The position numbers and the translations under genes are program-made. This document shows, in pieces, positions 58,335-61,440 of a stretch of DNA of 64,000 bases. The notes beneath the pieces were generated by a model. It ran no database searches. It saw nothing but the letters and a program-made list of their open reading frames with translations, and was not told the DNA's origin. The stretch lies in sequence record PQ505080.1; one strand, written 5' to 3'. Source of the DNA: Escherichia phage HMD-6. The first letter of the stretch is position 1; every line of letters begins with the position of its first letter.

Positions 58335-60758
58335 ATGAGTATGTGGTCTTTCGATCTGGAGGCCTCAGGGCTTTTGGAAGATCCAGATCTTTATTATCAC
58401 TGCGGTTTGTTTAAAGAGCTGAATAAGAACCGTTTTATGCTGTTCCTTCCTCTAAATGACCGCACACACTACTCTGAAGAGGATGTAGAAAAGGCTAAAA
58501 ACTTTATTCTGGCAAAGAAAACTCTCTATAAAGATTTTGAGGTTCGCATAGCAGATTTTTCAGAGTTGGAAGGTTGGCTTACAGGCAACTCAGACTGGTC
58601 ACCTACGGCTTTGAACTGTCATAACTGCTACAGCTATGACTTTATGCTGATGGAAAGATTATCCGGTATTCATTTTGATATGTTCCGTGATCCTAAATGC
58701 ATGGGGACTATCAACGACCACCAGGTTAATCTATTTGATACGTTGGCGATGAGTCGAATCTTGTGGCCTGACCGACCTTTGCCAAAAGGTTGTCCGGACG
58801 CAGTATTTAATCCAGTTACCAAGAAAATGCAGCCTGTTGGACCTCATGGCCTTATGGCATGGGGCTATGCCCTTGGTAACCAGAAAGTTCAAATCGATGA
58901 CTGGCGTGAGCTTCCGCTGTGGAAATATGTGGATCGTGTGTTCGAGGACGTTATCATCCAGGAGTTGCTCTGGAAAGAGTTGGTAGCGGAATCAAAAGGT
59001 GTATTCTACGGCAAATCTGACATGCAGAACTTTATGTATGACCCTGCCAAAGAGAAGCCTAAAGGATTCAAGAAGATCACCTGGAAGAATGCATTACGCC
59101 GAGGCATGTTACAGCATTTCCTGATGGAGCTGCAGGCTCGACAGGGTGTGTATTTCGACATAGATGGGGCTATTGCTTTACGTGACCGCTGCGATGCGTG
59201 GATGAAAGAGATCGCTGATCGTGTTGAACCACAACTCCCTTTAAAAGAGTTATCAATGTCTCAGCGGCCTAAGTTCCCTGAAAAGCCGTTTAACCAGGAT
59301 GGGACAATCTCTAATAACGGTTGGAAATGGTTAAAAGACAAGCTTGGCTATCCTGTGGATATGAGTGCTTTAGAATTCAAAGCCCCGCCTAAGCGAGCCT
59401 TTACCTCCACAGGAGATGTCAGCAAAATGGGGATAAAATGGTGTGAAGAGATGGGCTGCAAAGACCCAGATAAGATGGCTGATTTCTTGAGGGGGTATAT
59501 CAAAGGAACTTCTACACCACACCCTTTACCTAAAGAGCTAATGGATCAGGCAATAAGTGACCTACAGCAGAAGCGAATGCCTGACTGCAAGATACCTATG
59601 AAAATCAGCAATCAGGACGACATCAAGCGATACCTGATCAGTGCTGGTTGGCTCCCAACAATGTGGAGAACTAAGGATGTAACTAAAGACAGCAAGAAGA
59701 AAGCTCTGCCTGATGCTGATGTTGATGCACGAGTATATGCATATATGGACGAGCTTTTAGAGTCAGAGTATTGTGACCTAATTATCAACTTCTGGAACAA
59801 AACTGATGCTAAGTTTCAGACAACCGTACACAAGTTCCGAAGCTTCCCTAACTCAGAAAGGATTAAAAAGGAAGTGTTTGGGAAGATACGTAGAAAAGCC
59901 AGAGCGCTTATTACTTCTCCGCAACTGAAAGATACGTTTGGACACCTATGTCCGAATCTTGAAAAGTTGAACGGAGAGATGGCTAAAGATATCGTCTTGT
60001 GGTTATCCTTGCGAAACCGTAGATCGGTCCTTGATCCAATCAAGGAGGATAAGGTTGATACTGGTCTTCTTAATCATCCACGTTTGAAGATTGACCATAA
60101 GCTTCCTGCTAAAAGTTCTGGATTAACAAACACTTCTAGACAGAAACACAGCATTTGTGCAAACATGCCTAAACCATCTCCTAAAGTGGTTATGGGTAAA
60201 GAGATGCGCAGTCTGTGGGGTGTTCCTCCAGGATACTTTGAGATCGGTATTGACGGGTCCAACTTAGAGCAGCTTATCGGGGCTTGGGGTGCCTTTGAGT
60301 TCGACAACGGCCTGTACTATGATGTTGTAAGTAACGGGGACGCGCACCAAAACAATGCTGAGGCATATACAAAGGTAGCAGGTAGGGAGGTGTCTCGTAA
60401 CGATGGTAAACCTATCACGTATGGGGTTATGTATGGGGCACAAAAAGATAAAGTTGCAGATATGCTGGATATCTCTCCAGAGCTGGGGCAGAGAGTAATC
60501 GATGCTCTCTGGGATGCCAACCCGGGTCTTAAGGGGCGTAAAGAGGATCTGGAGAAATTCTGGGAAGCAACAGGTAAGAAATTTATCTACTCTTTTGACG
60601 GTCATGCCATTTGGACCCGCTCTAAACACTCTTTGCTTAATGCATATCAGCAAAATGGCGGTGCATCGTTGTGCGACTTGGTCGGAATCCTCATGCACCA
60701 CCAAATGGTGAAGCGTGGGTGGTATGATGAAGGTGTTCGTCGTATTATTTATTACCAT
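58335..60758 (+). CDS. DNA polymerase (family A, T7-like), exon 1
   Basis: 3'-5' exonuclease motifs 'FDLEASGL' and 'HNCYSYDFMLME'; motif A-like 'IDGSNLEQL'; motif B 'RNDGKPITYGVMYGA'. The ORF runs 6 nt further to a stop inside the intron (60764). Proposed join 58335..60758 + 61087..61440. Confidence 0.7.
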
Positions 60759-61086
60759 AAATAACATTGTGGCTTCGTGCAGTGATGCACGTCGAAAACC
60801 TCTTTAATTGACGGGAAGGCTAAGTTGACTTTTACACCTAAACATGGCAAAAGCTCAATATGCTAATCCGCAGCGAAGCATCCGAGAGGATGAACGTTCA
60901 GAGACTATCGAAAGCATAGCTCCAACACAGTTTGGGGTGAAGAAGTGAGTAGAGTAGGCCAGCAAGTGCGGTCGAAATGAGAGGTGCCTTGGTAACAAGG
61001 CAGTGAGATAGTCCGATCCATACGGGAAACTGTATGGCTATGCACGTAATGGTGCGGGGTAGCTTAACGACCTACCTGAACTATTG
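60759..61086 (+). ncRNA. group I self-splicing intron (no ORF) in the DNA polymerase gene
   Basis: Conserved core elements read directly: P-like 'AATTGACGGGAAGG' (60806-60819), Q 'AATCCGCAGC' (60865-60874), R 'GTTCAGAGACTA' (60896-60907), S 'GAGATAGTCC' (61005-61014), with P7 pairing GACTA/TAGTC. Exon 1 ends in U (60758) and can pair with intron GTGG (P1 with U-G); the intron ends in G (61086). Confidence 0.7.
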
Positions 61087-61440
61087 GATGAGTACCAACT
61101 TCAAGTCCCTGACACACCTAAGTATAAAACTGTATACACCTTCGACACAATTGAAGAGCTGGAAACATTTAAGTCCCAGCAGGAGGCTAAACTTCATGTG
61201 TTCGACGGTCATAAGTACAAAAAGGCACGCAAGGATGAAGAAGGAAACGAAGTAGTTGACAGTGATGGAAATACGGTATACGATCCTATCTTGAACGATG
61301 ACGGAAAGCTTGAACTTATCTGGAGCCCTGTGGGCGAAATGGTGGTACATTGCTTCTGGCAAGCTTCTAAAATGATGGGCGTTCCGTTCCAGATCACAGG
61401 TGAATACTTGTGTGGTCGTAACTGGGGTGATTGTCACTAA
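61087..61440 (+). CDS. DNA polymerase (family A), exon 2
   Basis: The frame is open only from 61084; the splice junction restores motif C (…IIYYH|DEYQLQV…, compare T7 'VHDEIQV'); C-terminus 'GRNWGDCH' resembles the T7 polymerase end 'GPNWAICH' (from memory). Confidence 0.65.
   Translation, partial: DEYQLQVPDTPKYKTVYTFDTIEELETFKSQQEAKLHVFDGHKYKKARKDEEGNEVVDSDGNTVYDPILNDDGKLELIWSPVGEMVVHCFWQASKMMGVPFQITGEYLCGRNWGDCH

Follow-up and report, generated by a model that had tools for sequence, protein, structure and literature searches.

The DNA considered here is a 64,000-nucleotide stretch (hereafter the window) of Escherichia phage HMD-6 (PQ505080.1), in which a DNA polymerase gene is interrupted at 60759-61086 (+). 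The interruption is very probably (at roughly 0.93) a group I intron that splices itself and has no open reading frame (ORF) of its own. The gene encodes a family A (T7 gp5-like) DNA polymerase, and the insertion separates the His codon of its catalytic HDE motif from the Asp codon. The source phage is a Vequintavirus (rV5-like coliphage), with a polymerase region 98.6% nucleotide-identical to that of phage vB_EcoM_SYGMH1 (SYGMH1). The architecture of the ribozyme, its exact boundaries, the restoration of the frame and of the motif, and the polymorphism among relatives are directly established; the splicing itself we infer.

The list of ORFs gives a DNA polymerase ORF at 58335-60764 (+), which ends with a TAA stop at 60762-60764, and an ORF in a different frame, with the C-terminus ...GRNWGDCH, which stops at 61440. 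The frames differ because 328 mod 3 = 1, and the excision of 60759-61086 (328 nucleotides) yields a single open frame of 925 amino acids with the junction RRIIYYH/DEYQLQVP (the slash marks the junction here and below). The gene is thus divided as follows:

58335-60758 (+): DNA polymerase exon 1, 808 codons, C-terminus YYH, with the last base, U60758, as the 5' splice-site U (from the ORF list and the T7 gp5 alignment)
60759-61086 (+): putative ORF-less group I intron, 328 nucleotides, subgroup IA2-like (from the RF00028 match, its base-for-base absence from phage Murica, and covariation)
61087-61440 (+): DNA polymerase exon 2, DEYQ...GDCH, 117 codons and a stop

The tblastn matches of exon 1 to relatives stop at the H of YYH. 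When the two exons are joined, the protein matches T7 gp5 structures (phmmer E 4e-16; query residues 633-813 against T7 residues 468-658), and the alignment is colinear across the junction, where the query YYHDEYQL lies opposite T7 WVHDEIQV. Motif C of family A polymerases is HDE, with its catalytic Asp and Glu, and this palm motif is present in the joined protein in register with a solved family A polymerase.

The boundaries are fixed by phages that lack the insert. The intron-less sister phage Murica reads TATTACCAT followed immediately by GATGAGTACCAA, which are the exon 1 and exon 2 of the window, base for base; since such intron-less alleles equal the joined exons, the intron is exactly 60759-61086. 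A 176-amino-acid peptide spanning the junction gave a single unbroken 528-nucleotide tblastn match in Murica, slur16, JES2013, and bov11CS3, among others, and the more distant GAP31, CR3, and ICP1 likewise matched it in one piece, while a 48-nucleotide junction probe found the uninterrupted junction in about 58 Vequintavirus records. The intron ends with G61086, a base invariant in 13 of 13 introns; a terminal G at the 3' splice site and an exact excision that restores the host gene are characteristic of group I introns, and the sequence provides for both. Near-identical copies of the intron are found in SYGMH1 (99.4%) and JEP1, both isolated plaque-forming phages, in which the polymerase is an essential gene.

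An earlier note on this DNA, made from its letters and ORFs, had claimed most of this: the stop at 60764 and the resumption in another frame, a family A polymerase, a splice junction of 60758 with 61087, a terminal G, and the re-creation of HDE at the junction. All of these claims were borne out. Its C-terminal portion of about 118 amino acids from 61087 needs a small correction: the GRNWGDCH end stands, but exon 2 has 117 amino acids, and the 118-amino-acid ORF starts at an intronic TTG.

A scan of the whole window against Rfam gave a single hit, to the group I intron family RF00028, at 60749-61036 (+), with 75.6 bits (the gathering score being 50 bits), an E-value of 2.2e-17, and coverage of the full model (1-253). 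The match stops 50 nucleotides short of the 3' splice site because of the extra P9.1 and P9.2 hairpins. The P3-P8 core of group I introns is present above the curated threshold, and its P, Q, R, and S elements are AAUUGACGGGAA, AAUCCGCAGC, GUUCAGAGACUA, and GAGAUAGUCC, respectively. The elements of the ribozyme are, from 5' to 3':

60755-60772 (+): P1 hairpin, in which exon CCAU and intron AA pair with UUGUGG (60767-60772), from the cmscan alignment
60776-60791 (+): P2 hairpin CGUGCA-GUGA-UGCACG, five of six pairs compensatory
60799-60804 (+): P3 5' strand (partner 60979-60984), three of six pairs compensatory, 100% paired
60809-60872 (+): P4 (60809-60815 paired to 60867-60872, comprising the P and Q elements) around an extended P5/P5a-c arm, from cmscan; 88% of P4 cells paired even with the shifts in the alignment, the P5 extension being variable
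60879-60892 (+): P6a hairpin CAUCC-GAGA-GGAUG, 14 nucleotides, where sister introns hold a 528-nucleotide HNH cassette
60903-60908 (+): P7 5' strand, R element GACUAU (partner 61008-61013), 96% paired, one compensatory pair
60909-60973 (+): P7.1 (60909-60953), GUA linker (60954-60956), and P7.2 hairpin (60957-60973), which lie between P7 and P3' and are the signature of subgroup IA
60979-60984 (+): P3 3' strand, from the covariation count
60986-61001 (+): P8 hairpin GCCUUG-GUAA-CAAGGC, five of six pairs compensatory
61008-61013 (+): P7 3' strand, S element AUAGUC, from the covariation count
61018-61037 (+): P9 hairpin with a GAAA tetraloop, four of eight pairs compensatory, 100% paired
61042-61076 (+): P9.1 (61042-61055) and P9.2 (61058-61076) hairpins, past the end of the Rfam model, from covariation and recovered by minimum free energy folding
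61086 (+): terminal guanosine (omega-G) and 3' splice site, invariant in 13 introns, the boundary being fixed by the intron-less allele

The U60758.G60769 wobble marks the 5' splice site, and each of the six pairs of P1 forms in every one of the 13 homologues. The guide, CAUUGUGG (60765-60772), is complementary to the ligated junction CCAU/GAUG, with two G.U pairs; because it pairs across this junction, a P10 of four base pairs between the guide and exon 2 GAUG is available. P7 is expected to be the guanosine-binding helix. Subgroup IA2 is defined by P7.1 and P7.2 lying between P7 and P3' and being joined by G-U-A (PMC3428280). This arrangement is found here and suggests an IA2-like intron, an assignment made by the P7.1-GUA-P7.2 criterion.

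Whether these helices have been maintained was judged from a structure that had been laid out manually for the window intron and was counted on an alignment of 13 introns from which the ORF cassettes had been excised. Standard pairs form in 92.3% of the alignment cells, and 43 of the 88 pairs have changed on both sides, compared with 25.8 +/- 2.8 in shuffled alignments, none of 500 shuffles reaching as high a count. When the 3' partners were slid by one to three columns, just 5-15 pairs with two-sided changes were left, and the covariation score fell from 0.366 to 0.09 or less. Covariation is strong from P2 to P9.2 and includes three of four pairs in P7.2, four of six in the inner hairpin of P7.1, and three of five in P9.2. 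P4 and P5 stay partly misaligned in the 13-intron alignment, which lowers their paired percentages. For P9.0, in which J7/9 would pair with the bases preceding the terminal G, the homologues gave mixed support, and the helix was dropped. The minimum free energy fold of the single sequence recovers by itself P1, P2, P3, P6a, P8, P9, P9.1, and P9.2 (z = -3.05). The Rfam scan, the covariation, and the thermodynamic fold thus agree with the 328-nucleotide group I intron that the earlier note had proposed, including its P, Q, R, and S elements and P7 pairing (GACUAU/AUAGUC). It had also recognized a U at the 5' splice site facing a guide GTGG, and this U60758.G60769 contact holds; the guide itself is longer, however, being CAUUGUGG, and adds P10.

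Expression of the gene might then proceed as follows. Transcription would run through the intron, and translation of the unspliced RNA would end two codons into it (AAA UAA), so that the polymerase produced would be without motif C's catalytic Asp and Glu. In the folded ribozyme, the guide would hold the CCAU of exon 1 via the U60758.G60769 wobble, and an external guanosine, bound in P7, would attack after U60758. The freed 3' OH of U60758 would in turn attack after G61086, with P10 holding the GAUG of exon 2. The exons would be joined as ...UAC CAU/GAU GAG..., which would restore YYHDEYQ and the 925-amino-acid polymerase, and the spliced junction is predicted to read ...TATTACCATGATGAGTAC...

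Several points weigh against a functional intron in a family A polymerase gene. The Pfam DNA_pol_A score (PF00476) is 31.7 bits, slightly below the cut-off of 34.3, so it is chiefly the alignment to T7 gp5 that supports the family A assignment. Two parts of the structure, the P5 extension and the outer P7.1, are poorly defined and the least certain (60-66% of cells paired, partly owing to alignment shifts). Finally, the intron has two private differences from that of SYGMH1, and just two, both of which weaken peripheral pairs: in P5c, C60848 stands opposite an A as an A.C mismatch, and in P7.1, U60946 changes a G-C pair to G.U. As both are peripheral, they are probably harmless. Such substitutions, together with the lack of the endonuclease ORF that most relatives carry, are nevertheless what might be expected of a decayed, inactive remnant that had lost both endonuclease and ribozyme activity and had left a polymerase pseudogene in a defective genome or assembly. 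This is very improbable: every core helix is intact; there is no remnant of an ORF but a clean 14-nucleotide P6a hairpin of the GNRA type, which recurs unchanged in three further genomes and in the rV5 intron within the terminase (TerL) gene; and both exons are open and encode protein that is 97-100% identical to the exons of viable phages.

Another possibility is that no splicing takes place and that two polypeptides of 809 and about 117 amino acids assemble after translation, as is reported for some phage genes split by endonucleases. GenBank does list the two polymerase parts as separate coding sequences, and split genes that are not spliced exist, such as CB7_245 and, cited in the same work, the Aeh1 NrdA (PMC7344957). 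In HMD-6, however, the break would part His from Asp within the catalytic HDE triplet; no ATG is present in exon 2, whose sole in-frame start, the TTG at 61084, is intronic, with no obvious ribosome-binding site upstream; the insert is a complete ribozyme maintained by compensatory evolution; and the homologous intron of phage CB7 splices. We give this explanation as little credence as that of a decayed remnant. A chance resemblance or an assembly artefact can practically be discounted, given the Rfam E-value of 2e-17, copies of the 328-nucleotide insert that are 98-99% identical in independent genomes, and exact boundaries against the intron-less alleles. The preferred reading is therefore still that of an ORF-less, self-splicing group I intron.

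Related introns occupy the same H/DE site in Vequintavirus, Avunavirus, Seunavirus, Certrevirus, the Aeromonas genus Plateaulakevirus, and the Vibrio phage K460. The intron lies between the His and Asp codons in all 12 relatives whose exons were read; the ECML-10 junction was placed by sequence only. The forms are:

Window phage, SYGMH1, and JLBYU08 (Vequintavirus): 328-329 nucleotides, ORF-less
rV5 (Vequintavirus): 276 nucleotides, ORF-less
24-2-1 (Avunavirus): 317 nucleotides, ORF-less
K460 (Vibrio phage): 254 nucleotides, ORF-less
FV3 and ECML-10 (Vequintavirus): 842-843 nucleotides, HNH in P6a
Av-05 (Avunavirus): 843 nucleotides, HNH in P6a
SSE121 (Seunavirus): 771 nucleotides, HNH in P6a
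LTH01 (unclassified Vequintavirinae): 772 nucleotides, HNH-like ORF in P6a, annotated as hypothetical and related to that of SSE121
phiTE and CB7 (Certrevirus): 687 nucleotides, HNH from P5 through P6a
4L372D (Aeromonas Plateaulakevirus): 740 nucleotides, HNH-like ORF (annotated as hypothetical) from P5 through P6a
phiA009 (Aeromonas Plateaulakevirus): 843 nucleotides, HNH-like ORF (annotated as hypothetical) in P6a
PVP-SE1 (Seunavirus): 919 nucleotides, LAGLIDADG in P7.1

Within Vequintavirus alone, the site has four states, namely empty, with a 276-nucleotide intron, with a 328-nucleotide intron, and with an 842-nucleotide intron containing an HNH gene, and the polymorphism expected of a mobile intron is therefore evident (about 58 intron-less records against the three occupied forms). 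The 328-nucleotide ORF-less form is rare: besides the window, it was found in the phage collection only in JEP1, SYGMH1, and JLBYU08. An exact 46-mer from the ORF-less P6a region had no match among the IMG/VR viral contigs, and four Avunavirus records have a variant P6a hairpin.

The introns of this site have taken up different endonucleases in different helices: a LAGLIDADG gene in P7.1 of PVP-SE1 (locus L012, 1201-2119), HNH genes in P6a of FV3, Av-05, and SSE121, and HNH genes starting in P5 of phiTE (locus L013, 642-1328), CB7, and 4L372D. That different genes are found in different helices points to several independent endonuclease invasions of this intron family. In K460 (locus L014), a minimal ORF-less intron of 254 nucleotides lies at 1029-1282, at the same H/DE site, and an annotated, free-standing HNH endonuclease gene (1522-2169) lies directly downstream of polymerase exon 2. 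This layout of an intron with a nearby HNH gene recalls the T3 gene 5.3 arrangement reportedly described by Bonocora and Shub in 2009. JLBYU08 belongs to the same species as the intron-less Murica and has four synonymous changes in the first 24 nucleotides of exon 2 (GATGAATATCAGCTTCAAGTACCT), a pattern that resembles a co-conversion tract or an altered endonuclease target site beside the intron.

The HMD-6 intron departs from the usual mobile intron in one respect: sister introns carry HNH or LAGLIDADG genes, and it has no homing endonuclease within it. A tblastn search with the endonucleases of the sister introns found no ORF with similarity to them in 60759-61086, in agreement with the earlier note, and the six HNH and LAGLIDADG proteins used found no homologue or remnant anywhere in the window (best E 0.016). 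In FV3, a 528-nucleotide cassette that encodes an HNH protein of 168 amino acids (locus L002, 4045-4572) exactly replaces the 14-nucleotide hairpin of the window. There are two ribozyme backbones, each of which exists with and without the cassette. The backbones of the window and SYGMH1 differ from that of FV3 at 3-5 of 314 positions, and that of JLBYU08 differs from that of ECML-10 (locus L017) at 1 of 315, whereas 19-24 positions differ between the two backbones. On both of them, the swap is always between 14 and 528 nucleotides and has identical boundaries. Random deletion would not generate one and the same hairpin on two occasions; hairpin and cassette therefore behave as exchangeable alleles, which may be exchanged by recombination or by the endonuclease gene's own movement, and the cassette appears to be swapped separately from the intron that holds it. 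The presence of the hairpin in the TerL intron marks it as the native P6a of the intron family.

One tentative explanation, to which we give somewhat less than even odds, is that the 14-nucleotide hairpin represents the unoccupied site for an independently moving HNH cassette. If so, the endonuclease gene would enter and leave ORF-less introns independently of intron homing, or would be lost by conversion against an ORF-less intron, and ORF-less introns would persist as cleavage-resistant alleles that are carried along in mixed infections. These phages would then offer a natural snapshot of intron and endonuclease evolving apart and subsequently uniting, a pathway that Bonocora and Shub are said to have proposed in 2009. 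This swap on two backbones is the sole point that is slightly new. The HMD-6 intron is otherwise an ordinary, previously unannotated case of a well-known class at an already described insertion site, and it leaves the current understanding of group I introns unchanged.

The site is a homing hot spot, as same-site introns have HNH or LAGLIDADG genes and many sister phages are intron-less, and the earlier suggestion that the insertion fits homing-driven mobility gains from both observations. The HMD-6 intron cannot home alone because it has no endonuclease. Most likely, two things account for its spread or persistence: recombination during mixed infection, perhaps with an HNH enzyme of the FV3 type assisting in trans, and the intron's disruption of the sequence on which homing endonucleases would be expected to act. 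All of this about its movement we infer from the comparison of genomes.

One of the closest known systems is that of the Pectobacterium phage CB7 (Certrevirus), in which the intron with CB7_50 was shown to splice by reverse transcription PCR and Sanger sequencing (PMC7344957, Table 3). CB7 belongs to the same subfamily, Vequintavirinae; its insertion site is identical (...RRIIYYH/DEYQLE), and the ends of its intron, AAGUAACAUUGUGGC ... AAACUUUUG, are homologous to those of the window. It differs in that its intron has 687 nucleotides and contains an HNH ORF extending from P5 through P6a, and in that its polymerase gene has two introns, whereas that of the window has one and this one is ORF-less. 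Also close are FV3 and most other intron-bearing Vequintavirus genomes, which have the same site and the same backbone (3-5 of 314 nucleotides differ) but hold the HNH cassette where the window has the hairpin.

A further relative is found in another gene. Intron 1 of rV5 TerL is likewise of group I (84.9 bits), has no ORF and comes from the same genus; its segment Q-P6-P6a-P6' is identical to that of the window, including CAUCCGAGAGGAUG, but it has another guide sequence and other peripheral helices. This rV5 intron (DQ832317, locus L016, approximately 2369-2676) shares the segment AATCCGCAGCGAAGCATCCGAGAGGATGAACGTTCA with the window intron, and a TerL intron with the same Q-P6-P6a-P6' is found in rV5 and about 50 other Vequintavirus genomes. 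The TerL and window introns would thus be either paralogous or the products of sequence exchange.

The site is also used outside the myophages. We take the corresponding E. coli Pol I motif to be QVH881-D882-E883, so that site 881 would be the same His/Asp position. The T7-like phages PhiI (AY769989) and W31 (AY769990) have IA2 introns at polymerase site 881 (E. coli numbering), with HNH genes in P6a (Bonocora and Shub 2004, J Bacteriol 186:8153, as summarised in PMC3428280). Like the window intron, these lie in a family A polymerase gene and have P7.1 and P7.2 linked by GUA, and their endonuclease ORF is in the same element as the HNH gene of the FV3-type introns; their hosts, however, are T7-like podoviruses with an HNH enzyme (I-TslI), whereas the window is from an rV5-like myovirus without one, and the likeness is one of insertion site and subgroup. 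Group I introns are also found at conserved motifs in the family A polymerase genes of SPO1, SP82, Bastille, and Pf-WMP3 (PMC3428280). These are HNH-associated, with nicking enzymes, and occupy site 674 of the fingers subdomain, unlike that of the window, which is at motif C. The HDE codons of family A polymerases would thus be a homing hot spot common to rV5-like, Aeromonas, and Vibrio myophages and to T7-like podophages.

The intron has consequences for annotation. The rV5 genome paper of Kropinski et al. (2013) described introns only in the terminase gene and gave the polymerase as 775 amino acids (PMC3606486), which indicates that the polymerase intron was missed. In the rV5 record NC_011041 (locus L005, 778-1053), the polymerase is truncated, and the hypothetical proteins rv5_gp222 and gp221 are annotated inside the 276-nucleotide intron; in SYGMH1 (locus L001, 4250-4606), exon 2 is annotated in GenBank as a hypothetical protein. 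The polymerase is routinely mis-annotated in rV5-like phages, and recognition of the intron yields the true enzyme of 925 amino acids. Vequintavirus would, moreover, be a convenient E. coli system for crosses on the spread and loss of ORF-less introns and endonuclease cassettes.

At the other end of the window, a gene at 1-1391 (+) extends beyond the window start and matches phrog_559, a family labelled HNH endonuclease, with an E-value of 3e-93; it has no match in Pfam. It is present in just four phage records (JEP1, A147, A135, and PDX), the JEP1 copy being an ORF of 540 amino acids that stands free between tail genes. The gene is probably mobile and probably codes for a homing endonuclease that has no relation to the polymerase intron. 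The earlier note had rightly called it a free-standing endonuclease-like gene, but its hint that the gene might serve the intron found no support: the two are 57 kb apart, and SYGMH1 and JLBYU08 have the ORF-less intron without the gene (at the search sensitivity used).

Finally, many MG0656xx records bear the name 'Campylobacter phage' (host C. jejuni) and share 93-96% identity across this locus with the Vequintavirus phages of E. coli; their host labels look doubtful.

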